In this document: in pieces, positions 14,175 through 64,000 of the stretch
Numbering within the stretch: position 1 is the first letter of the stretch
Layout: each line of letters starts with the position of its first letter
Source: a virus
Taxonomy: Duplodnaviria; Caudoviricetes
Direction: 5' to 3' (one strand)
Length of the DNA: 64,000 nucleotides
IMG/VR virus record: IMGVR_UViG_3300039452_000187
Location: 1 to 64,000 of that record
The notes under the pieces: model-generated
Seen by the model: the letters and a program-made list of their open reading frames with translations, nothing else
Database searches by the model: none
Told to the model about the DNA's origin: nothing
Made by a program: the position numbers and the translations under genes

Positions 14175-14310
14175 AAAAGGATCGTTCCCAACGGCTGGAG
14201 CGTACAAACAAAAGATGCTTCGTAGTGGAGCGTCAGCCTTATAAGCTGAAAGGACGGGTGCGACTCCCGTTCTTTTGTTACCTCGCTTGAGCGACTTGAA
14301 CGGTCCTTTT
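14175..14310 (+). ncRNA. Y-like RNA 1 enclosing a whole tRNA-like cloverleaf (anticodon UAU)
   Basis: Outer stem AAAAGGATCGTTC/GAACGGTCCTTTT, CCAAC/GACTT internal loop, second stem, TACAAAC; cloverleaf 14207-14279 with TCAGC-CTTATAA-GCTGA and ACGGG-TGCGACT-CCCGT. Confidence 0.75.
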
Positions 14311-14396: not shown

Positions 14397-14535
14397 GTCC
14401 GTGCCCGACAGTGAGAACGTACAAACTGCATGTGGGTTCGACTCCCATCTTCTTCGCAAGGAGAAGTAGCCTAACGGTAAGGCAAACCTCTGATAAAGGT
14501 TGATAGTGATTCCCGTTTTCATGACTTGCACGGAC
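14397..14535 (+). ncRNA. YrlA-like Y RNA with circularly permuted tRNA domain (anticodon GAU)
   Basis: GTCCGTGC/GCACGGAC outer stem, CCGAC/GACTT loop; T arm (GTGGG-TTCGACT-CCCAT), acceptor stem closed by GCAA, D arm (GCCT-AACGGTA-AGGC), anticodon arm (AACCT-CTGATAA-AGGTT). Confidence 0.85.
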
Positions 14536-44736: not shown

Positions 44737-46116
44737 CTACCAGTTGGGCATGCGCGGGCGCTGAAAACGCCAATCATTCTGCTGCCGCTTCTGCCGCGCG
44801 TCCTGAGCCGTCTCGTTGAGCCAGGTGCCCATGTCGGTGCCGTCCTGGCGCTCGGCAATGCCAAGAATGCGGTTGACGCCGTTGGCGATGTCGCGGAGAC
44901 TGCCGTGAATCTCGTTGCCGTTGCCGAAATTGCGGCTGAGCCAGTTGGCAATGGCCAAAGGCGTCAGGTTGGACAGGTCGAAATTGACAATGCCGCTGCC
45001 GATGTTGGCGAGTTTTTCACCGATCCAGTTGATGAGGGCCTGGAAGGCAATGGAGAGTTCGGCCGTGTCGTCGGCAAGCTGGTTATAGGCCCGCGACAGC
45101 TGCCGGGTGCTATCGGCCAACCGATCGCCCATCTGCATCTCACGCATGGCCCGCCGCGCATCGCTCTCGGCAAAGACCGCCGCCATGTTGCCGGAGAAGT
45201 TGGCGAGGCCACGCTGGGCTTCCAGGAGGCCGCCGGCAAAATCGCGTAGCAGCCCCGGCAAGGCGACGAACGCAACGCCGACCGCCAGGGCAGCGCTGGC
45301 CACACCCAGCAGACTCACCGTGGCCCCACCAGCCCCAGCGGCACCCGCCGCACCTGCGGCTCCCCCGCCGCCACCAGCCCCAGCGGCACCCGCCGCACCT
45401 GCGGCTCCCCCGGCCCCACCAGCCCCAGCGGCACCCGCCGCACCTGCGGCTCCCCCGGCGCCAGCGGCAAACGCCCGGCCGCCGCCAAAGAGGTTACTGA
45501 CAATGTTGCCGAGCCCACCCAGGCCGCTCCGCACAATCCGGCCGCCCGTGGGGCCAAACTGGCGGCGCGCCGCCCGGCCGGCACGGGTACGAAAGCGCCG
45601 GAAGCCGCCGCGGAGTTGCTGGGAGCCGCCCGTGGCTCGCATGAAATTCCCGATGGAACTTCCCACGGGTTGCCAGAGACCGCGCAACTGGTTCAAAAAG
45701 CGTTGGGCATCGGGCGGTAGCACCTGTTGCCAGATGCTGGGACCGTGGGCGGGCCGGGGCGGGCCGGCTGGTCCGGGTGGCGTACCTGGCGGCGGTGGCG
45801 GTGCGACTCCCGGGCCAGGCTGCACGTCCACATGGCCGGCGTGCAGCGTCAAGGTGGACAGGTTGGCGGTAAGCGCCAGCTGTAAAGGCGAGCCGAGGGA
45901 CTGAAAGGCCGCCTGGACCGCAGCACCGATCTGGGACACCAGGGCACCGGCAATGTTAGTGGCGAGAGCCGCGATATCAATGGGCGGGACGGGTGGTGGC
46001 GGCGGTGAGCCACCAGGAGGGCCACCGCCCGGTGGTGGCGGTGGGGGGGGCGGTGGAGGGGGAGGAAGGGGAGGAGGGGGTGGTGGTGGCGGGCTGCCTC
46101 CAGGAAATGCTGACAT
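44737..46116 (-). CDS. Short tape-measure-like protein with polyproline and Gly/Ala repeats
   Basis: Follows the frameshifted chaperone pair; Ala/Gly-rich with a hydrophobic segment and helical C-terminus. Confidence 0.65.
   Translation of the reverse strand: MSAFPGGSPPPPPPPPLPPPPPPPPPPPPGGGPPGGSPPPPPVPPIDIAALATNIAGALVSQIGAAVQAAFQSLGSPLQLALTANLSTLTLHAGHVDVQPGPGVAPPPPPGTPPGPAGPPRPAHGPSIWQQVLPPDAQRFLNQLRGLWQPVGSSIGNFMRATGGSQQLRGGFRRFRTRAGRAARRQFGPTGGRIVRSGLGGLGNIVSNLFGGGRAFAAGAGGAAGAAGAAGAGGAGGAAGAAGAAGAGGGGGAAGAAGAAGAGGATVSLLGVASAALAVGVAFVALPGLLRDFAGGLLEAQRGLANFSGNMAAVFAESDARRAMREMQMGDRLADSTRQLSRAYNQLADDTAELSIAFQALINWIGEKLANIGSGIVNFDLSNLTPLAIANWLSRNFGNGNEIHGSLRDIANGVNRILGIAERQDGTDMGTWLNETAQDARQKRQQNDWRFQRPRMPNW
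45326..45457. repeat. 3 x 45-bp near-identical tandem repeat
   Basis: CCACCAGCCCCAGCGGCACCCGCCGCACCTGCGGCTCCCCCG starting at 45326, 45371 and 45416. Confidence 0.9.
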
Positions 46117-49241: not shown

Positions 49242-51053
49242 TTAGATCGGCACGAGGCCCACCTGGATGCAGGCGCCGGCCAGACCGGTCAGCGTGCCGC
49301 CCAGGGTGAGCGACAGCCGATCACCGGCCGCCAGCTGCAAGGTCGCCGCCGTGGCGATCAGTGTGCCACTCACCACCGTGTTGGCCGTGCCCGCCAGGGA
49401 GACCGTGCCCGTGAGCAGAGCCGTGCCGCCGCCCGGCGCAGTCGTCCCGGTATCCTTGTTGACTGTGACGGTGCCGGAGGAACTGGCCGTGCTGAAGACC
49501 GCTTTGAGGCTCTTGACCCGGTAAGCGCGGGTCGCCAGGAAGATCGTAAAGCTGCCCGCCGACGGAGCTGCCCCTTGGGTCTGAGCCCAGTTGGCCCAAG
49601 TGAGGCCATCCGAGACGCTGTTGATTTGGACTTCGCCGGCCGCCCCGGCTGTCCCGCCGGACGTGGTGCCGCCTGCACCGGGGACGAGGTTGATGTTGCC
49701 GCCTGCGCCACCGGTCCCGGCGCCGCTGGCATTGCCGCCCGCCCCGGCGGTCAAGGTGAGGGTGCCGCCGTTGCCGCCCGTGCCCGTGGCCGTGCCGCCA
49801 CCGCCTGCACCGGTGAGGGCCAGCGCGCCGCCATTGCCACCCGTGCCCGCGCCGCTGGCCGCGATCCCCGCGCCGGAGACGAGGCTCGCCGCGCCGCCCG
49901 CCGCCCCGCCGCCCGTGCCCGCACCGGCGGTAATCGTGACCGCGCCACCGGTACCGGAGGTTGCCCCGCCGGCCCCACCGGTAATCGTGACCGCGCCGCC
50001 ACCGCCTGTGGCCCCGCCCGCGCCGCCAATGAGGCTCGCCGCTCCACCGGCCTGCGAACCGGACCCGGCGCCACCGGTCAAACTGGCCGCGCCACCGACA
50101 GAGTTGCCCGCCGTGCCCGCACCGCCCGTAATCGCCACGGCACCACCGGCGCCACTCGTGGCCCCACCGGCACCACCCGTGAGCGTCAAGGCGCCACCAC
50201 CCCCGGTCGCGCCACCGGCCCCGCCGATGAGGCTGGCAGCACCACCGTTGCCCGTGCCCGCCCCAGCACCACCGGTCATGCTGACCGCGCCACCGGCGTC
50301 ATTGGTCGCCAGCGAGGCACCGCCCGTGATGGTGACCGCACCACCCGGACCCGTGGCCCCACCGTTGCCGCCCGCCCCGCCGGTAATAATCGTCGCGCCA
50401 CCGGTCCCGGTCCCGGTTGCCGCACCGCCGATAAGGCTGGCCGCCCCGCCGTTGGAGTTGCCGGCCGTGGCCGCCCCACCGGTCATGCTGACCGCGCCAC
50501 CGGCGCCGCTGCTGGAGCCGCCAGCCCCGCCTGCGATCGCGATAGCGCCGCCGTTGGCCGTGCTGTTGGCTGCGGCCTGGCCGGTGAAGGGGAAGGGAGT
50601 CGCCGCCGCTGTCAGCGAGGAGAATTGCCCCGCTGGGCCGGCGTAGCTGTTCATGAGCACCACCTGGACCAGGCCGTACTGACCGGCCGGGGTGCTTTCG
50701 AGGGCGATGGCGCCCACATTTTGCGTCGTGCCGCCGCCGGGGGCTGTGACACCCGCGCCGTTGGCGTCGGATTTGAGGTAATCGCCGCGGGTAAAGCCGC
50801 CCGAGCCCGCGAGCAGATCGCAGATGTCGCCCAGGCCGAAGAGTTCCACCAGGTCGCCCTGCGCGGCCGCCAGCGTGGCGTTGCTGCCGGAGAGGCCGGG
50901 GGCATCGCGCGGACCCGCCTGGCTGATGCCGATGATGGCGCTGTTGGCGGTCGACTGGATGCACATATTGTCGGCCGTCACGTCGATTTGCACGAACGTC
51001 GACACGCTGATGTTGCCGTTGGCGCGGAGTTGAGGTACTTGATTTCTGCTCAT
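49242..51053 (-). CDS. Capsid cement/decoration domain fused to long Gly-rich repeat region
   Basis: N-terminal DUF2190-like pattern (IIGIS...GD.L.SDANG.GVTA...GAIALE); repeated GGAVTITGGAGG/GGAASLIGGAGG units. Confidence 0.7.
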   Translation of the reverse strand: MSRNQVPQLRANGNISVSTFVQIDVTADNMCIQSTANSAIIGISQAGPRDAPGLSGSNATLAAAQGDLVELFGLGDICDLLAGSGGFTRGDYLKSDANGAGVTAPGGGTTQNVGAIALESTPAGQYGLVQVVLMNSYAGPAGQFSSLTAAATPFPFTGQAAANSTANGGAIAIAGGAGGSSSGAGGAVSMTGGAATAGNSNGGAASLIGGAATGTGTGGATIITGGAGGNGGATGPGGAVTITGGASLATNDAGGAVSMTGGAGAGTGNGGAASLIGGAGGATGGGGALTLTGGAGGATSGAGGAVAITGGAGTAGNSVGGAASLTGGAGSGSQAGGAASLIGGAGGATGGGGAVTITGGAGGATSGTGGAVTITAGAGTGGGAAGGAASLVSGAGIAASGAGTGGNGGALALTGAGGGGTATGTGGNGGTLTLTAGAGGNASGAGTGGAGGNINLVPGAGGTTSGGTAGAAGEVQINSVSDGLTWANWAQTQGAAPSAGSFTIFLATRAYRVKSLKAVFSTASSSGTVTVNKDTGTTAPGGGTALLTGTVSLAGTANTVVSGTLIATAATLQLAAGDRLSLTLGGTLTGLAGACIQVGLVPI

Positions 51054-54973: not shown

Positions 54974-55357
54974 TCAATGGGAAACCACCTGGGTCTCGCC
55001 GGGTCGATAACTCCCGACGCCACCGGTATCCGTTGGTTCCTTGGTGTACTGATTGCGGCCGGCATGCCCGGCCGCGTTGCGATTCCCCGGCGGGGCACCG
55101 ACGCGGCGCCGCGTGGTGGCTGCCCGCCGCAACCAGAAGAACTCCGTGACCCAGACCCGGCGGCCGCGCTCGGAAATCCGCCGGTAGCCGAGGTCGTGGG
55201 CCAACCGCTCTAGCTCCCTGGTCGCGTTGCGCTGGGCGTCACCCTCCACCAGTTCCCCGAGATAGACGCACTGGCGGAAATCCTGGGGTGCCGTGCGAAA
55301 GAGGAAGGCATAGCGGCAGCGGAGGATGTAGAGCAGGCGGCTGTGGTGCTCGAACAT
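54974..55357 (-). CDS. Hypothetical protein
   Basis: ORF with RBS downstream of the HTH gene. Confidence 0.5.
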   Translation of the reverse strand: MFEHHSRLLYILRCRYAFLFRTAPQDFRQCVYLGELVEGDAQRNATRELERLAHDLGYRRISERGRRVWVTEFFWLRRAATTRRRVGAPPGNRNAAGHAGRNQYTKEPTDTGGVGSYRPGETQVVSH

Positions 55358-55387
55358 GACGGCTGATCCTTCAGGGTTCCTGTCTGT

Positions 55388-55612
55388 CTATTCGTTCGGA
55401 CTGCGAAAATCTTCGGTCGAAATGTCCAGGGTGTCCGCCAAGCGGCAGACCGTCTCCCAGAGCGGCTTGCCTTCGCCACGTTCCAGGGTGCTGAGGGTCT
55501 GCTTGGAAACGCCGGAGCGGCGGGCCAGCTCGTAGGCGGACAGACCCGCCTGGGTGCGCAGGGCACGGAGGCGGGCGGCGAAGGAAGCGGGGGCGGGTTT
55601 TTTCTTGGCCAT
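55388..55612 (-). CDS. XRE-family HTH regulator
   Basis: RLRALRTQAGLSAYELARRSGVSKQTLSTLERGEGKPLWETVCRLADTL. Confidence 0.92.
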   Translation of the reverse strand: MAKKKPAPASFAARLRALRTQAGLSAYELARRSGVSKQTLSTLERGEGKPLWETVCRLADTLDISTEDFRSPNE

Positions 55613-55641
55613 AACTCGTCACCTATCCAGTTGGCCGAACA

Positions 55642-56379
55642 TCACGATACGCGAACACGTTCCGCCATGCTCCATCGTCCGTAGTAGTCGTTGCGATCCT
55701 CAATCCGAAACGTCCAGCGCGAGCCATCGGCATCATAGCCCAGCGCACCGTCGGGATAAACGGTAATCGCCAGCGTCTCCAGTCCCAGAATTGCGAGCAA
55801 TTCCATGCCGACCAGCGTGAGACGCTGCATTCCCGCCGCGTCAATCGAAAAGCCATCCTCTAAGGCTGTTGTGGCGCACGGCTTGTAGAGGCCACTAGAG
55901 CCGCTGATCGGCGATTCACAGGCCAGCACGTCCTCGACCTTCTTGGGCAGCGCTTTCTGTCGCTGCTTGACCAGCTTGGCGAGGGTCTGCTGACCAGCCC
56001 ACACCTTGAGCGCTGGCACGCGGTCGGCCCACATGATCCGCACGCCACCGATTTCGCACCCGTGACGATTGGGAATGGCCGTCACTTCGGCCTCGCGTAA
56101 CCAGTCTGCCACCCGCTGATGGTCTACTCGCCGCGCGGCCAGAAACTTTTCCCGGTCGTCCTCGTCGCCACCATCCTCCGACCAGTCATGGTCAGGCTCA
56201 CTGCGGCCAATCCGGTCAAGGAGCCAGAGAAAACCGACCTGAGCAAAATACTGCGCTGGCTCGTGCCGGTCGCCCAATTCCATGTCGGGAATGCCGGCCT
56301 CGCGGTTCCGCTCGCGATCCCTGGTGCGAAAGCGGGCCACTCGCTCCAGCCGGGCGGCTTCATCGTGCATGCTGCTCAT
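55642..56379 (-). CDS. Orphan type I-G (I-U) Cas8/Csb3-like protein
   Basis: Ordered motifs PAQYFAQVGFLWL, LKVWAGQQT, ALEDGFSID, ELLAILGLE, FRIEDRNDYYGRWSMAE match my recollection of the GSU0052/Csb3 family. Confidence 0.65.
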   Translation of the reverse strand: MSSMHDEAARLERVARFRTRDRERNREAGIPDMELGDRHEPAQYFAQVGFLWLLDRIGRSEPDHDWSEDGGDEDDREKFLAARRVDHQRVADWLREAEVTAIPNRHGCEIGGVRIMWADRVPALKVWAGQQTLAKLVKQRQKALPKKVEDVLACESPISGSSGLYKPCATTALEDGFSIDAAGMQRLTLVGMELLAILGLETLAITVYPDGALGYDADGSRWTFRIEDRNDYYGRWSMAERVRVS

Positions 56380-56384
56380 AGGTC

Positions 56385-59300
56385 TTACTCCTTGACTGAG
56401 AGGTTGTGCTGTTCGCGGTAGGCCGCTTCGGGATCCTGGCGGTATTTTTCCAGCCAGCGCTTGGCCTCATCGCGCTGCTCATTAGTCATGTAGCCGGACA
56501 CGTTGTAGTCATCATAAGGCTTCGCCTGCGCTTCGAGCGCCTTGATAGCCGCCGGGATCTTGGAGGTAATGACTTCCTCCGGCGTTGCCGGTCGGACCAG
56601 CACATGCTGCATGCGTCCTAGCCCACCAATCTCCGGGTCGCGCAACTCAAAGACGTCGCTGCCGGCCAGGACGGTGTAATCCTTGCCGCGTACCTGGATG
56701 ACCGCCCCCTTTTTCTTGGGCGGAAAGCCACCGGTTCCGCCCACCCCCAGATCCTGCTGCGCCTTGATGCGCCAGACTAGGGCATCGGCCGGAGGATTTT
56801 TCGGCAGGTCGCGCTTGGTCATGCCGAAATCCTTGGGCTTGTCGTAGAGCTTGCCAACCTTGCCCCGCGCCGCGTCGTAGACCTTTCGCGTGAACGCCGG
56901 CTTCAGCGCCTTCTCCATCACGTCGGAGAGGACGTAGGACAAACCTCGATTCGGATCATCGGCTTTGATGCCCAGATCGCTGGCCAATCGCTCCAGTCGT
57001 GGCCGGCTCAGGCTGTAAATGCTATCTCGCCACTCTTTTTGGACGCGCTCAGGGTCATTTGTCGTGGCCGCCTGCGCCAGCAGATCCTTGGCGCGAGCAG
57101 CCCGTTCGGCGCGTCCGTGTTCGGCGGTCGCGGCCTCGTAGCGATCCTGCGCCGCCTTGAAAATATGCGTGTTGGGGTAAGTTCGATCCCGCTTCGCCGG
57201 ATCGGCGCCCACGATTCGCTCTGCTTCCTCGCGCTCTTCGGCCGACAGATCGTTGAGCGTCGGCGCCATGTCAATCCAGCCCTGCACCGCCGCCGGATTG
57301 GCCACAAAGCGGCGCAAGAAGTCGAGCGCCGGTTCCCCTGGCTGCCGCTTCAGTGGGCCACCCTGTTGCGTTGCAGTCGGAGTAACTGCCGATACGGCTG
57401 GCTGGGACACGTCTGGCTGCTTGACCGACTCGGGCTTCGGTGCCGCTGCAGCCGGTGGCGCCAGGGCCGCCTTGGCATCCTCATAGCCTCGCCGCCAGCG
57501 ATTGACTTTGCCGCCACTCCAGCCCCGCTCCTTCCATGATTCCTCCGTCTTGCCCGCCAGGGCATCGACGAATCCAGCTCGGAACTCGTCGGCCGGAGGC
57601 GTGCCCGCCTGAAGATTCCGTTTCGCCAGAGCTTCCGCCAACGCGACCTCGTGCCCCGCTGCCACCGTGTCAGATTGTGCCCCTGTCATTGCTGCCGTGC
57701 CGACCATCGCATTCCCCTCCGCAGGCTTCCCCGGTGTCGCGCCCGTCGCGTCACCTGCAGAGATCATAGTCTGTTGGACCGGACTAGTCAAGTCTTCCTG
57801 ACTAGAATTCGCGGAAGTTTTTTCGGGCGGGCTTGGGACCGGTGCCGGTTCGGTTTCCGGCGGCTCACTGGCCGATTGCTGGGCCGTTGCCGGTTGGTTC
57901 TCCTTCAAGCGGTACAGCGGCCCGCCGTATCGCCGTGCCACCTTCTCGACATGCCCGCTCCGTTCCAACTCTTCCAGGTGCCGTTGCAGCTCGGCGCTTG
58001 GCTTACCTGTCGCATCGGCCAGTTCATCGACCGACGCAATGCCGTGCTCGGAGAGGACCGCCAAGGTTGAGTGGTCGGCGCCGGAAATATTGGAGGGTTG
58101 TTCCACTGCCGGTGCCGGCGCCGGTGCCTGTGACTGTTTCCCTTTCAGTGCCTGTTCCACCACATCGGCGCCATTGCGGTAGTAGCCCGCCAACTCCTTA
58201 TGCCCGGCCTTTTCCAGGGCGGGAATGAGCGTCTCGCGAATGCGCTGGACCACATTCGCCAGCCCCTTCTCGCCTTGCCGCCGGTAGCCCGGATCGGCCG
58301 AGGTCATAAAGCGGTTCCAATTGGACGCTGCCGATCTCAGCCATTCGTTCGTATGAAGTCCGAGCTGGGCATGAAGTTTGTCCAGGTGGCGTGTGTCCGC
58401 GTTGGCCAGTGCTTCCAACTTCTGGCCGATGTCGCGCGTAGGGTCGATCAAGATAGCCCGATCGCGTGCGGAAAGGACATCAGTTTCGGCCGCAGCCTTC
58501 ATCGGATCAGCGGTAGCCAGTGCGGACTGCGCGGTCTGCGGCTGGTTGGCCTGGTTGGCCTGGTTGCTCGGTGCTTGTTTCGACGACCGCTCAGCATCCG
58601 TCAACATCGCCGCAATCTCGTGCAGGCCGTTGACGCCAGCTTTTTCCATCGCGGATTGCAGCAGCTGCCGCGCCAAGAAGCTACTCGGCAGCGCTGCAAG
58701 ATGTTTCCTGGCGCCAAACGTCATCACGTCTTGTTCGGCCATATGCCTTGGGATACCTTTCTCCCAGGCAATGCCATCCTCTGGAACTTCCTTGCCGTTG
58801 GCGCGTTCCTCGGCCACTTCACGCTCGATCCGATCGAGATACCTCTTCTCCAACTGCTGGGCCAAGTTTTTTAATCTGCCTTCACCGATCGCTTCGGCAA
58901 ACTCCTTCCACTCTTTCATGTTGATCGTGCTCCGCTGCATCGCCTTGTAATTGGGATGCTCGCCAAACCACTTGAGTCGCCCCAGGGGACTGGCATTGAT
59001 GTCATTCCACTTGACCTGCTGCTCCTGCCGCTCTTTCTCGTCCTGGATTTGTTCTGGCGTCATTGGCTCGCGCGGCTGCTTTTGCTTGGCATTTTCGCTG
59101 GGCGGCTTGCCCATCTCGCCGCCTTGCGGTTCTTTAGTCTGGGGCTTCTGGTCAGGTTTCACCGAGAGTCCGTGAATCGGCATCCACCGGCCGCCCTTGT
59201 AGAACTCACCGTTAACCGGGGACGTTTCGCCGCCAGCTTTCGCCTTCACCCAGGTTGTCCCTTTACTGTCCTTGAACTTGTTTGCATCGGCTGGAGGTTT

Positions 59301-62300
59301 TTCGGCTGGTTGCTCCGCGCCATCGGCGCCGCTTGTCTTCTCCGTTGCCGCGTCAATCTGCCCCGTGATGCCGTGCTCCTTGGCCCACTCCAGCATGTGC
59401 TTGTACGCCTTGAGTCGTTTGCCGAACTGCTCCCGCAACCCTTCCGCGTTGGGGTGCTCGGGCGGAATCCCGTCCAGGAACTTCTGATGCTCCTGGATCA
59501 GTTCTTCCAGCCGATGTACCGTGAGTTCGCCGTGGTGCGAGCGGAGCCCGGCGAAGCTGGCCTTAGCCCGGCGCAATTCCAGTTCTGACAACTCATGGCG
59601 GGTGTGTGGCTCGAGCTGCTCGTGCAACTTGGCGACGTCGATACTACCACGCGACCGGCGCCGCTCGGTCTGCTCCTCCTTGGCCTTGTCAATCTTGGCC
59701 TTTTCGCTGGCCGGCAACTTTTCGACTTCCTTGGCCGGAATCCACTGCCCGCCTTTGTAGTGCCTGCCGTTGGCGCCAACGATGCCACCCTTCGGGGCGC
59801 GCTCCGCAGCGTATTGGTCCGCCTCCTCGCCCTGCTTAATGTCCCACTTCTTCCGTTCTTCATCCCAGGCCACGTACCAGCCCGTCCCTTCCAATTCCTC
59901 TGCCGCCGCCGCAAACTCGCTCTCGGGAATCTCCAGCCCGGCGTCGTCCAGGGCGTTCCAGCCGTCGGCATACCAGCGGGCCAGCTCCCGAGCTTGCACC
60001 GAAGAATCTGGGTCCGCTGCTTCCCGGTCATAGCGCTCCTGCGCGGGCGGCCCCACCGCGATGCCGAAGTGGACGAACTTGCGGCCCTGGTCGTCCTGGT
60101 CGTGCCAGATTTGCTCGAAGCGCTCCACGGGGATCATGACCCGGCCGGGCGTGCGCTCCACATCTCGATCGTTGGTCACGTTGTCAATCGAACTGTCCTG
60201 GCAGAATACCTGCCCGAGCCCTACGCCAATGACCGTGAGATAGTGCCCGTAGTTAAACGAAGCCCCGGCGCTCCTTCTGTGCCCGTAATCTTGCACCGGG
60301 GTAATGACCGGCCAGCCGCGCCCGAAGTAGTCGGCCAAATCGTCCACGGCCATTCCATTCCGGGCTTCCACCTGCAAACCGAGCGAGCGCAGGTAATCAA
60401 TGATGGCGTAGGGGTGCGTAGATTTGGCCAGCGTCGTGCCGAGCGCCTGCTTCCACTCCGCCAGGCGCTCGGGGCCGACGCCGAAATACCGCCCCGTGGT
60501 CATCGAGGCACAGGCGCCGCAGCTGTAGTGATCGCGCTGGCGTATGTCCTGGACCGGCAGCAGTTCACTGCCAGGCGCGGCCGCAGTGAGAGCGTCGGTA
60601 CGGTCATAGCGGGCGGGCTGGTCGGCGCGGGCCAGGTCGATCTTCGGGTTGCTGGGATCAAAGGTGCCCGCGTTGTCCACAGCCTTGATTTGGTGAGGCT
60701 CGAAGGCAATCCAGACCCGGTGCTGCTGAACCCCTTCGATTTTTTTGCCGCGGCGAGACCCATAATGACCCACATGGGTAATCCCGTCATACCCTTGTGC
60801 GGCTAAATGCTTCTGGAGTCCCGACTTACTCAAGCCTCCTTGACGGACAACCTCTTCATAACTCGCGTGGGGTCGCTGAACCTCGTGGACATCGGGCTGA
60901 AAACTGATGTTGTAAGGCCGCAGGGCCTTGCGAAATTCCGGGTGGGATTGATAGAGGCCCCAGAGCCGTTGCGGTTCGGCCGTCATCATTTGCTTCATTT
61001 GTTGCCAGGTGAAATTCATCGACACGTTCGGTAACGATTCAAGCGCCGCGTGCATCTGTTGCCAGTGCTGATCGGTCGGCGTGACTGCCTCATCACTGAC
61101 CAGCAGAATGGGCCGTGTCTGTTTGATGCGAAACCGACTGCGCGCCGGCTCGGGAAGGTCTGCTGTAGCAATCTTGCCACGGTCAATGTCAAACGGCTTG
61201 CGGATGTTGAGGTACACGCTAAAAACGTGTCCCTTGGGCCGTTCCACCCAGCCGGCAAACTGGTTGCCGAACTCTGCATTGAGAATGTGCTCACCCTTGG
61301 CAACGGCGACACCGACGTTGCTCTCTGTTGAGTCAAGAATCATCGCTTCCAGCTGATGCAACTGGTATTGGCGAGACTCCAAATCTTCAGCCTGCCGCTG
61401 GAGCGATCGTTGAGCGACACGGTCCTGAGTCAACCTCAATTCCTTCACTGTGTACTGCAGATCGGCCGCCACCTTCGCGGCTTTTTGCTTGAGCGCCGGC
61501 AGTAACTCGCGGCGCACTCGTTCCACCGGCACGGCGAGTTTACCGCCAGCCCTGTCGACCAGGCCACTCCCGTGCTGCTTGTAGTCCTCCGCGATCGCCG
61601 CCGCGTCCGTAAAATAGAACCCTGGTCCATAGAACAGCTTTTCGCCCTTGGCGAGTTTGCTTTTCAAGAACTCGTCAAAGCGGTCCCAAGGGGTGCCGTG
61701 GTACACCACCTTGGGCATCAGGTTCTCAACGACGACCGAATGTTCCACCGGTGCCTGCTGCTGCGGCTCACCCGTTTCCGGGTCGATGACTTTGGACGCA
61801 TGGGCCGCATCGTGCTCCCAATCGCCGAACCAGGCACGAAACGCGGGAGCGCGGGTGCCAAGCTCCTGATACTCCTTGCGCAGCCGGGCTGCTTTCGCTT
61901 CCGGCGTCTCTGGCGCCGCTGCGGCCGGAGCTTGCTTGCCTTGTGCATCCTGACCTGGTTCCGGGCGCGGCCCCGGATCGTCCTCATGCTCGCCCTCGTG
62001 CTCGTGCCCGCCCGGCATTTCGTCCCGGTACAACACTCTCCCCGTGCGGTTGCTCTTCCAGCCCTTACCGCCGCGCGGTCCCGTGTACGGCGTCCACTCC
62101 CCGCCCGCGCTGCCGCCGCCCTGCGGGTCCAGGAAATTGGTTTGCCCGGCCGCGTCCTTTTTCTTCCGCGCGTACTGGTCCGCCTCTGGCTGGTAGGTGC
62201 CGTCCCACTCCAGCACCAACTCCCGCAGCTGCTCGGGATCCTTCACCGGCTCGGCCTCGCTCAGACTGAACGGGCCGCCGCCGCGATGGTAGTACAGGTC

Positions 62301-62681
62301 ATGCCCGGGACTATCATTCCGGTCGTCCACCACCACGACATGCTCCGCGATCTCTGGGGCCTCCACCTGGTCTGTCGTGCCGCCCTGCGGCAGCGTCACC
62401 AGGCAGATCCGGTGCAAAGAATCGTCATGCGGATCGGTGAGGTAGAGCCAGCCGCCGCGCGGCACCGCCCCCAGCACGTCCGCCAGGACGGCCGCGTTCT
62501 GGACGTTGACGGGATCAGGCGGCGGCAAAGGCTCGGTCAGCTCGTTTGTGTTGTCCGATTCGGCCGCGTACTTCCCGACTGAGGCTGCCGCCAAGACTTC
62601 TTCCAGTTCGGCGTCGGTCACTGCCGTAGCATCCGTCAGACCGCTGAGAAAGGACCGAAACTCCTGCACTAGCGCTGTCAC
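56385..62681 (-). CDS. Giant polyvalent protein: ART-like domain, C39 peptidase, wHTH and others
   Basis: FRAWFGDW..VYHGT..GFYFTD..VYLNIRKP..GYDGI..FEPHQIK (ART-PolyVal-like, ~60640-61850); Q...YSCGAC..GHY...QD (C39, ~60050-60565); wHTH ~57900-58070. Confidence 0.85.
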   Translation of the reverse strand: MTALVQEFRSFLSGLTDATAVTDAELEEVLAAASVGKYAAESDNTNELTEPLPPPDPVNVQNAAVLADVLGAVPRGGWLYLTDPHDDSLHRICLVTLPQGGTTDQVEAPEIAEHVVVVDDRNDSPGHDLYYHRGGGPFSLSEAEPVKDPEQLRELVLEWDGTYQPEADQYARKKKDAAGQTNFLDPQGGGSAGGEWTPYTGPRGGKGWKSNRTGRVLYRDEMPGGHEHEGEHEDDPGPRPEPGQDAQGKQAPAAAAPETPEAKAARLRKEYQELGTRAPAFRAWFGDWEHDAAHASKVIDPETGEPQQQAPVEHSVVVENLMPKVVYHGTPWDRFDEFLKSKLAKGEKLFYGPGFYFTDAAAIAEDYKQHGSGLVDRAGGKLAVPVERVRRELLPALKQKAAKVAADLQYTVKELRLTQDRVAQRSLQRQAEDLESRQYQLHQLEAMILDSTESNVGVAVAKGEHILNAEFGNQFAGWVERPKGHVFSVYLNIRKPFDIDRGKIATADLPEPARSRFRIKQTRPILLVSDEAVTPTDQHWQQMHAALESLPNVSMNFTWQQMKQMMTAEPQRLWGLYQSHPEFRKALRPYNISFQPDVHEVQRPHASYEEVVRQGGLSKSGLQKHLAAQGYDGITHVGHYGSRRGKKIEGVQQHRVWIAFEPHQIKAVDNAGTFDPSNPKIDLARADQPARYDRTDALTAAAPGSELLPVQDIRQRDHYSCGACASMTTGRYFGVGPERLAEWKQALGTTLAKSTHPYAIIDYLRSLGLQVEARNGMAVDDLADYFGRGWPVITPVQDYGHRRSAGASFNYGHYLTVIGVGLGQVFCQDSSIDNVTNDRDVERTPGRVMIPVERFEQIWHDQDDQGRKFVHFGIAVGPPAQERYDREAADPDSSVQARELARWYADGWNALDDAGLEIPESEFAAAAEELEGTGWYVAWDEERKKWDIKQGEEADQYAAERAPKGGIVGANGRHYKGGQWIPAKEVEKLPASEKAKIDKAKEEQTERRRSRGSIDVAKLHEQLEPHTRHELSELELRRAKASFAGLRSHHGELTVHRLEELIQEHQKFLDGIPPEHPNAEGLREQFGKRLKAYKHMLEWAKEHGITGQIDAATEKTSGADGAEQPAEKPPADANKFKDSKGTTWVKAKAGGETSPVNGEFYKGGRWMPIHGLSVKPDQKPQTKEPQGGEMGKPPSENAKQKQPREPMTPEQIQDEKERQEQQVKWNDINASPLGRLKWFGEHPNYKAMQRSTINMKEWKEFAEAIGEGRLKNLAQQLEKRYLDRIEREVAEERANGKEVPEDGIAWEKGIPRHMAEQDVMTFGARKHLAALPSSFLARQLLQSAMEKAGVNGLHEIAAMLTDAERSSKQAPSNQANQANQPQTAQSALATADPMKAAAETDVLSARDRAILIDPTRDIGQKLEALANADTRHLDKLHAQLGLHTNEWLRSAASNWNRFMTSADPGYRRQGEKGLANVVQRIRETLIPALEKAGHKELAGYYRNGADVVEQALKGKQSQAPAPAPAVEQPSNISGADHSTLAVLSEHGIASVDELADATGKPSAELQRHLEELERSGHVEKVARRYGGPLYRLKENQPATAQQSASEPPETEPAPVPSPPEKTSANSSQEDLTSPVQQTMISAGDATGATPGKPAEGNAMVGTAAMTGAQSDTVAAGHEVALAEALAKRNLQAGTPPADEFRAGFVDALAGKTEESWKERGWSGGKVNRWRRGYEDAKAALAPPAAAAPKPESVKQPDVSQPAVSAVTPTATQQGGPLKRQPGEPALDFLRRFVANPAAVQGWIDMAPTLNDLSAEEREEAERIVGADPAKRDRTYPNTHIFKAAQDRYEAATAEHGRAERAARAKDLLAQAATTNDPERVQKEWRDSIYSLSRPRLERLASDLGIKADDPNRGLSYVLSDVMEKALKPAFTRKVYDAARGKVGKLYDKPKDFGMTKRDLPKNPPADALVWRIKAQQDLGVGGTGGFPPKKKGAVIQVRGKDYTVLAGSDVFELRDPEIGGLGRMQHVLVRPATPEEVITSKIPAAIKALEAQAKPYDDYNVSGYMTNEQRDEAKRWLEKYRQDPEAAYREQHNLSVKE

Positions 62682-62692
62682 ACTCGCACCCC

Positions 62693-64000
62693 TTAACTGT
62701 GCCGTGAATAAATGGACAAGAATTTTTGAGCCAGCAACTCCATCTCCGATGCCAACCGCTCGTACTGCTTGGCGAGTTCGCTCCGTCTGAACGGTACTTC
62801 CTCCCCTTGCTCAACCCGATGTTGCTTCCATTCGCGCCGGTCCCGCTCGGCCGCCCCAAAGCCGGTCGTCGCCGGCACACGCTTCCTTCGTTCCTCTTCC
62901 CGCTGGTGCTCCGTCAACCGGTCGAACGCCTCGCTATACGCCTCATCTTCCGACAGCGGTTCTGGGTTGCCGCCGAGCAACAAGTCATACAGCCGGCCGG
63001 GTAAATCGTCTTCGTGCCCGTTGAATTCCTCCGGATACTTCGCCGCCACGCTCTGGGCCACGTCGTCCAGCCCGCGCACCGCGTCCGCATCAATGCCCCG
63101 GCTGGCGCGGGCCTTCAAGGTGTCCAGGCTGCCGTACCCCTGGCTCTCCGACAGCTGCCGCGCATCCTTGAGGAGCCGCGTCCGGTCCTTCTTGAACTCG
63201 CGATCGTGGGCCAAAATCTCCGCCGCCAACTGGTGTAGGTGCTCGCCCTTCAGCCCCGACTTCCTTGCTTTCTTCGCCCAGATGGCCCGTTCATAAGCCC
63301 GGCTCTGGGCCAGCTGCTGCCGGTGCGACGGCTCCGGGGACTCGGCTTCCGACTCCGGCTCATCGAACACTTTGCCGGTATGGGCTACCACCGCCGGCCC
63401 GTGCCGTGGCTGGTGGAGGTTGACGTGCCCGGATTGCTGCAATTCGTGCAATGCCTCGTGCAAGGGCGAGCCCGGCTCGTGCTTGTCGCCGGTCAGGCGC
63501 TGCAAGGTGCCCACGTCAGCCTCGCCCGTGTCCAGGTGCTGTAGCAGTTGCTTTTTCAGGTGATGGTGCTGGGACGGCTTGGACCGTGCGTCGCCCTTCT
63601 CCGACAACGCAGCGATTTTCTTCCCGGTGAACTTAGGGTGCCCCTTGGCAATCCTTCCGTCCTTGCCGATACATACAGGACTGCCGCCGCTGCGCTTGCC
63701 GCCGTGGCCCTCGTGGGCACCGATCGTGATCCAGGTACACGAACCGGAACCACTGGACTTGCTCCGCTCATAACCCTCTGGATCTTCACGCCGCCCAAAC
63801 CGGTCAAACAGGCCGCGATTGGGGACCGTGTTACCGCCGAAGAAGCCCGGCGCGGATACCGGGGGCTTAGGCTTGACGGGCACAGCTTCCCCTGGGTCCG
63901 GCTGTGCCTGGTCGGTCGGTTGTCGGTCGAACCACTCGGCGAAGCTCAGGCCGTGTTTCGGACCGCCCAGCGTGCGCGACTCGTTCCATTCCTTCTGCCA
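62693..64000 (-). CDS. Head-associated hypothetical protein, 5' end outside the window
   Basis: Frame is open from 64000; WITIG...GSPVCIGKDGRIAKG motif; wHTH-like segment. Confidence 0.65.
   Translation of the reverse strand, partial: WQKEWNESRTLGGPKHGLSFAEWFDRQPTDQAQPDPGEAVPVKPKPPVSAPGFFGGNTVPNRGLFDRFGRREDPEGYERSKSSGSGSCTWITIGAHEGHGGKRSGGSPVCIGKDGRIAKGHPKFTGKKIAALSEKGDARSKPSQHHHLKKQLLQHLDTGEADVGTLQRLTGDKHEPGSPLHEALHELQQSGHVNLHQPRHGPAVVAHTGKVFDEPESEAESPEPSHRQQLAQSRAYERAIWAKKARKSGLKGEHLHQLAAEILAHDREFKKDRTRLLKDARQLSESQGYGSLDTLKARASRGIDADAVRGLDDVAQSVAAKYPEEFNGHEDDLPGRLYDLLLGGNPEPLSEDEAYSEAFDRLTEHQREEERRKRVPATTGFGAAERDRREWKQHRVEQGEEVPFRRSELAKQYERLASEMELLAQKFLSIYSRHS

Follow-up and report, generated by a model that had tools for sequence, protein, structure and literature searches.

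The type I-G effector, one of the multisubunit complexes of CRISPR immunity, is built so that the N-terminal domain of Cas8g touches Cas7.1, Cas7.2 and the CRISPR RNA (crRNA), while Cas3 joins only via Cas8g; by what means Cas8g reads the protospacer-adjacent motif (PAM) and keeps hold of Cas3 has yet to be settled (PMC9638904). Phages are known to turn such subunits against their hosts: AcrIB3, a Cas5 homologue, and AcrIB4, a homologue of the C-terminal domain of Cas8b, build into a defective Cascade and fall in clades of their own, distinct from those of genuine Cas proteins (Katz et al., bioRxiv 10.1101/2023.06.24.545427). Here, we describe a gene for a protein of 245 amino acids (aa) in a virus of the Caudoviricetes, IMG/VR record IMGVR_UViG_3300039452_000187, analyzed through a window that comprises positions 1 to 64 kb of the 97,554-bp record. 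We show that the protein is a real, distant and full-length homologue of Cas8g2/Csb3, type I-G's large subunit, and, by analogy with the Listeria phage proteins, we give about an even chance to the reading that it is a Cas-subunit-derived anti-CRISPR against type I-G, acting by subunit mimicry.

55642..56379, minus strand: Cas8g2/Csb3-like protein, 245 aa, assigned from profile, structure and tree evidence

A first-pass annotation had proposed this homology from five motifs of type I-G Cas8, and profiles, phylogeny and structure all bear it out. The protein matched neither Pfam nor PHROGs, and on TIGR04106, the NCBIfam equivalog for type I-G Cas8g2, it scored 21.3 bits (E = 1.7e-4, with residues 120-201 aligned to model positions 129-220), short of the curated cut-off of 125 bits; the equivalent PADLOC model gave E = 4.5e-5. 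TIGR04106 was likewise matched by 23 of 25 close homologues (best E = 5.6e-7) and by 65 of the 76 family representatives (50% identity) searched singly, and exhaustive phmmer connected the protein directly with P0107, a Cas8g2 encoded in an operon. In hhalign, a profile of the close family aligned with one of 28 true Cas8g2/Csb3/Csx14 sequences at 99.5% probability (E = 2.6e-23, 197 columns), the match running collinearly from residues 37-242 against columns 14-252 of 263. Because of this E-value, and because so many of the representatives match TIGR04106, the homology lies far beyond chance. Reciprocal hidden Markov models (HMMs) gave 54 bits for the protein on a Cas8g2 HMM and 26-60 bits for Cas8g2 proteins on the phage HMM. 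Searching PDB sequences with the family profile returned noise only, and the protein showed no further domain and no enzymatic motif.

All five motifs are there, in order, and hhalign sets each against the matching stretch of the Cas8g2 consensus: EPAQYFAQVG (41-49) with NPGQFFACCG, LKVWAGQQT (124-132) with LKLWAGQQTS, ALEDGFS (172-178) with ALDVGFS, ELLAILGLE (193-201) with VELLAAIGLQ, and FRIEDRNDYYGRWSMAE (224-240) with YRFRI..RGSYKG. The motifs that are best conserved among Cas8g2 proteins, PxQFFA, LKxWAGQQT, ALDxGFS, ELLAxIGL and FRIxxR, are those kept by the phage family, which also retains (P0107 numbering) P17, G25, W97, G150, D152, G163, S165, E180, G186 and R241.

The predicted structure points the same way. 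An AlphaFold2 (AF2) model of the protein, with a predicted local distance difference test score (pLDDT) of 89, placed 8b2x_M, the type I-G effector's large subunit, first in an exhaustive VIA-align search (Z 7.5, root-mean-square deviation 4.2, 171 residues), followed by 7r2k_Y (I-A Cas8, Z 4.8), 8fcj_I (I-B, Z 4.2), and then I-C and I-B Cas8 chains. A control AF2 model of a true Cas8g2 (pLDDT 90) returned the same three top chains in the same order (Z 11.3, 7.9 and 4.0), which confirms the Cas8g-like fold of the target, so that the protein, as modelled, has the fold of the Cas8g N-terminal domain. The Cas8g match was recovered by the exhaustive VIA-align search only: Foldseek against PDB and BFVD gave nothing at E <= 0.001, and the ESM Atlas gave low-score leads only, one being a cluster named as type I-U Cas8c. 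Compared with Cas8g2, the modelled protein carries an extra N-terminal helix (residues 1-36) and an acidic loop with a longer helix (~residues 58-96) where Cas8g2 has a beta-hairpin, and it is without a helix of ~20 aa close to the C-terminus.

The protein is thus like Cas8g2/Csb3/Csx14 (TIGR04106, GSU0052), which serves as short large subunit in the Cascade of type I-G (formerly I-U), in length (245 vs ~255 aa), near-full-length collinearity, motifs and predicted fold, and unlike it in its profile score, in its place in the tree and in lying outside any cas3-cas8g2-cas7-csb2 operon. The search gave 27 close relatives (51-85% identical) and a total of 84 representatives, none of them named and most of 190-260 aa; the family forms ~75 clusters at 50% identity. 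Two-group HMMs separated the two kinds cleanly, with phage-type proteins reaching 70-440 bits on the phage HMM but 15-70 bits on that of Cas8g2, and true Cas8g2 the reverse. In a quick maximum-likelihood tree, the ~75 solitary-type representatives lie across a branch from all operon-type Cas8g2, with 97% support in the Shimodaira-Hasegawa-like approximate likelihood ratio test (SH-aLRT). This split matches genomic context. For the Cas8g2 side, three contexts were checked: P0107 and P0218 belong to cas3-cas8g2-cas7g-csb2 operons, and P0100, on a short contig, has cas7g and csb2 after it, whereas all eight contexts examined on the solitary side, the window among them, were like those of phages or mobile genetic elements, with integrases, ParB, CsrA, terminase-like genes and many small open reading frames (ORFs), and none of the eight held a cas gene.

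Purifying selection on the Cas8g2-like gene is strong, with a ratio of nonsynonymous to synonymous substitution rates (dN/dS) of 0.08-0.18. The gene behaves as an accessory one, being the only gene that the window has in common with other carrier phages; downstream of it, L004 and L005 have a small ORF and an ISL3 transposase in common as well. The family is known from metagenomes only and is broad. INPHARED phages gave no match to it by tblastn, a scan of metagenome contigs added only four further short loci, and a search of the Atlas for the large terminase (TerL) had viruses only among its matches.

Some features of the closest relatives are recorded here in their own right. In three of the four, an insertion sequence (IS) transposase lies within a few hundred bases after the Cas8g2-like gene, IS1595 in one and ISL3 in two (L003:7606-8569, L004:3292-4590, L005:11011-11403), and the two ISL3 relatives, L004 and L005, share an ORF (83/68 aa) between the gene and the transposase. 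Such neighbours speak either for a hot spot of insertion or for a gene that moves with the help of IS elements. On the 95.7-kb contig of L005, the gene copy is read in two frames (L005:9998-10719; residues 3-172 and 142-243), which points to a frameshift, to a pseudogene or to a fault in the assembly.

In the reading that we favour, the protein, as a descendant of Cas8g2/Csb3 adapted to phages, would sit in place of Cas8g2 on the host's Cas7g-crRNA backbone or, alternatively, would bind or titrate Cas3, which is held on the type I-G complex through Cas8g; in either case, the resulting complex could not recognise or destroy phage DNA. Such a decoy would keep the docking core and be without the elements for target recognition or Cas3 handling. 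Since Cas8g contacts Cas7, crRNA and Cas3, a Cas8g2-shaped decoy has obvious targets, and the 57-60% identity that Cas7g keeps across phyla provides a conserved surface on which to dock. An anti-CRISPR role fits because the clade is found in phages only, the gene is under purifying selection, HTH (helix-turn-helix) neighbours and an HTH fusion occur, as set out below, and AcrIB3 and AcrIB4 provide a precedent.

That precedent is close in kind. Like the 245-aa protein, AcrIB3 and AcrIB4 are Cascade-subunit homologues that phages or mobile elements carry away from cas operons and that make up a clade of their own; they are, however, 38% identical to their Cas parents and confined to Listeria, whereas the present family, at ~25-28% identity, is broad and related to subtype I-G. 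AcrIB4 copies only the last 90 residues of its parent, and the 245-aa protein copies a whole large subunit, of the N-terminal-domain type. AcrIF3, which binds Cas2/3 and imitates in structure the helical bundle of Cas8f, is also similar in being a large-subunit look-alike, possibly one that blocks nuclease recruitment, but no homology to Cas8f is detectable in its sequence and it copies a C-terminal bundle only, while the 245-aa protein is homologous to its counterpart and corresponds to an N-terminal-type domain. Among the 358 orphan viral cas genes of Katz et al. there are only two I-U cas8u1 hits, neither in this phage record.

The neighbours of the gene bear on its possible regulation. Three tightly packed minus-strand ORFs of 245, 74 and 127 aa are placed as the first-pass annotation had them, and the second is indeed a small HTH gene.

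55388..55612, minus strand: XRE-family HTH protein, 74 aa (HTH_31, 1e-15; HTH_3, 7e-14)
54974..55357, minus strand: ORF of 127 aa, 30 nt beyond the 74-aa HTH ORF, assigned to no family

The 74-aa ORF begins 29 nt downstream of the Cas8g2-like gene on the same strand, the position of the small HTH gene in acr-aca operons; unlike in such operons, no acr promoter or operator was identified at the 245-aa gene. An HTH gene also lies within three genes in three other contexts, as the next, convergent gene in L007, three genes downstream beside P0059, and two genes upstream and divergent in L003. The P0039/P0229 cluster, of 8 members, has an XRE HTH joined in-frame to the N-terminus of the Cas8g2-like domain, and the 74-aa HTH of the window is 42% identical to the fused one over 40 aa. 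AcrIIA1 is a self-regulating fusion of an anti-CRISPR with an HTH. The fused cluster likewise resembles AcrIF24, which is described in PMC9001735 as a self-regulating Acr-HTH fusion. By these analogies, the 74-aa protein is a candidate Aca-like regulator, and in our favoured mechanism it would serve as an Aca-type repressor. The 127-aa ORF has a coding-like GC content at third codon positions (GC3 0.81) and a basic C-terminal half; its only family match is weak, to proteins like the small terminase TerS (E = 0.015), and other carriers of the Cas8g2-like gene do not keep this ORF next to it.

Upstream, the cassette joins two large genes.

56385..62681, minus strand: polyvalent protein, 2098 aa (ART-PolyVal ADP-ribosyltransferase domain; MarR/DprA-like winged helix)
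62693..64000, continuing to genome 68,500, minus strand: 3' part, within the window, of an ORF of 1935 aa (Portal_Mu, 1.4e-38)

These are two giant genes back to back. The 1935-aa protein has an N-terminal Mu-type portal domain followed by a long extension, which places the cassette within a head-morphogenesis module, and the order along the minus strand is TerL, further genes, the 1935-aa portal fusion, the 2098-aa polyvalent gene, the Cas8g2-like gene, the HTH gene and the 127-aa ORF. The first-pass annotation had seen the layout of an acr-aca cassette here; the HTH gene does follow directly, but the cassette is not free-standing and forms the tail of a long string of head-module genes.

This arrangement would also suit another role, that of a virion or head-module protein expressed from the late head operon and either co-packaged and co-ejected with the polyvalent ART protein or aiding its assembly. 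The 245-aa gene starts 5 nt after the stop of the 2098-aa gene directly upstream, itself preceded by the portal fusion, and its AAGGAG Shine-Dalgarno sequence, 8 nt upstream, overlaps that stop codon; no promoter-like site, terminator or operator-like inverted repeat was detected between the two genes or around the 245-aa gene. In other phages, however, the copies of the gene are not beside portal or polyvalent genes, and because their flanks are unrelated, the protein is not a conserved structural component. We therefore consider a virion role improbable, and it could in any case coexist with an anti-defence role.

The setting also recalls Mu-like Pseudomonas phages, in which an anti-CRISPR region lies between gene G and a protease/scaffold gene (PMC3993853). 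Both loci have an accessory cassette ending in an HTH gene, in the head module of a phage with a Mu-type portal, but the flanks here are the portal fusion and the polyvalent ART protein, and the downstream genes were not identified as protease or scaffold: the downstream ORFs of 516 and 347 aa gave no identification as scaffold/protease or capsid in Pfam, PHROGs and further searches. The likeness is thus only an analogy.

Several observations weigh against an anti-CRISPR directed at type I-G. Residues that are invariant in Cas8g2 (D13, N16, C23, C24, W157, Y206 and W209 in P0107 numbering) are replaced or deleted in the phage family, a loss that would fit a decoy but would fit an entirely new function too. 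The family is old, at ~25-28% identity to Cas8g2; the earlier idea of a captured Cas8 subunit stands as regards the homology, whereas a recent capture does not, the gene being a member of an old, diversified phage family. That the host has a type I-G system is something we infer, and no family member turned up in 185,579 representative bacterial genomes in two pattern scans, one with family patterns and one with the back-translated motif WPDR.P.L..W.G, both of which gave chance matches only. Moreover, the target need not be I-G, because one Listeria Cas3 homologue inhibits a different CRISPR type (Katz et al., bioRxiv 10.1101/2023.06.24.545427). Proximity to an HTH gene is weak evidence, since HTH genes are common in early and accessory regions of phages. 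Finally, the 245-aa gene looks co-transcribed with the head-module genes, unlike an early acr operon, and upstream of it there is no sigma-70-like site or suitable inverted repeat, although sigma-70 may not be the type used by the host.

Much of this divergence would also suit a neofunctionalised protein of Cas8 fold whose task has nothing to do with CRISPR inhibition, such as an accessory protein that binds nucleic acids, a regulator or a superinfection-exclusion factor acting alongside the HTH, and we regard this as a possible, if clearly less probable, account. Besides the deep divergence, the lost invariants and the presumptive nature of any link to a I-G host, it is favoured by the large diversity within the family (branch lengths of 0.5-1.5), by lineage-specific N-terminal extensions of the longer members, in which no Pfam domain was found and no fold recognised, and by the frequent siting of the gene near integrase, repressor or ParB regions, which are home to varied accessory genes. 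Yet the motifs retained are exactly those best conserved in Cas8g2, as is expected if the core and the surfaces at work inside Cascade still matter; the protein shows no sign of any other domain or enzymatic motif, and the viral Cas homologues tested so far are anti-CRISPRs (Katz et al., bioRxiv 10.1101/2023.06.24.545427).

We also asked what other cas genes the phage carries. The record has 147-bp direct terminal repeats (DTR) and is rated complete. As the first-pass annotation had stated, the window contains no cas7, cas5, cas3 or CRISPR array; over the complete phage, Cas7g/Csb1, Csb2, Cas3 and Cas1 are absent as well, and therefore no I-G system in the phage uses the 245-aa gene. A Cas12m gene and a 7-repeat array, however, lie at genome 74.8-77.5 kb, past the end of the window.

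74,804-75,274 of the genome (L009:10804-11274), outside the window: CRISPR array of 7 identical 37-nt repeats with 6 spacers of 34-37 nt
75,467-77,503 of the genome (L009:11467-13503), minus strand: Cas12m-type effector, 678 aa, adjoining the array

The 678-aa protein had no Pfam or NCBIfam match, but Cas12u1/Cas12f models matched it at E = 1e-76 to 1e-77 (PADLOC Cas12u1, 4.5e-77) and PDB 23vw_A, a Cas12m, at 1.3e-53. No cas1, cas2 or cas4 module was found at the locus, which, as a phage-borne type V-M system, presumably silences competitor or host genes by DNA binding. The array has a period of 72 nt, and its repeat reads GTCTCAGTAACCAACCCACTGAGCAGGGTCTTCCAAC on the plus strand; on the cas12m strand, it ends with an 8-bp stem-loop and two bases, a Cas12-type crRNA handle, and it bears no likeness to a true I-G repeat or its ATTGAAGC handle. 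Searches with spacers found no near match to the phage spacers (up to 8 mismatches) elsewhere in their own genome, no exact match to one phage spacer and the repeat core among IMG/VR viral contigs, and no match between the 29 spacers of one I-G array (L014) and this phage or related loci. That the phage array might be a type I-G array served by the 245-aa gene was considered and ruled out, as its repeat differs and carries a Cas12-type 3' handle beside cas12m.

The presence of an array and an effector gene in the same phage, together with the conserved Cas8g2 motifs, invites the reading that the protein is a functional large subunit, either serving the phage's own CRISPR locus or swapping into the host I-G Cascade to redirect it. 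We find this very unlikely. Cas12m is a single-protein type V-M effector, the repeat and its 3' stem-loop handle are unlike those of type I-G, and the array is 19 kb distant from the gene. G001, the other near-complete carrier phage (98%), has no Cas12m, and because of this and of the un-I-G-like repeat, the Cas8g2-like gene and the Cas12m locus are independent of each other. A related version, that the phage supplies a replacement large subunit on the host Cas7g-crRNA and retunes the complex rather than only poisoning it, seems to us equally unlikely. By cutting the complex's tie to Cas3, for example, or by changing how the PAM is read, such a subunit could leave the host complex neutralised for this phage yet active against competitors; if this were true, the family would be a widespread phage-encoded replacement subunit, and more than a plain inhibitor.

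Further features of the genome were noted in passing. Just past the Cas12m locus lie a large terminase (L009:13858-15345, minus strand) and a D12-class N6-adenine DNA methyltransferase (L010:1395-2414, minus strand; genome 80,395-81,414), with an HTH_Tnp_1_2 protein between the two. Within the window, there is a tRNA-Ile(TAT) gene at 14208-14279 (plus strand) and, ~180 nt downstream, a second, weak tRNA-like match at 14460-14521 (plus strand; Rfam 29.8 bits vs a gathering score of 29), for which ARAGORN makes no call. In-frame tandem repeats that are Gly/Pro/Thr-rich, 3.2 copies of 45 nt (45322-45463) and 1.9 copies of 198 nt (49913-50295), sit in large minus-strand ORFs, probably for tail or fibre proteins, of which one has a weak tail-fibre PHROG match.

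Type I-G is the least understood of the type I subtypes. Our literature search found no anti-CRISPR against it, and to our knowledge none is known. Cas-derived anti-CRISPRs and orphan viral cas genes are a known kind of element; what would be new here is an unusually large family built on a whole large subunit. If the decoy reading is correct, the family would supply ready candidates for the first I-G inhibitors, and its members would be natural separation-of-function variants from which the Cas8g2 surfaces for docking, DNA recognition and Cas3 recruitment might be told apart. The principle that viral cas genes become anti-CRISPRs, so far drawn from Listeria, would then reach another subtype as well as the phages of soil and wetland, and one virus would both disarm the CRISPR system of its host and wield a Cas12m locus of its own.

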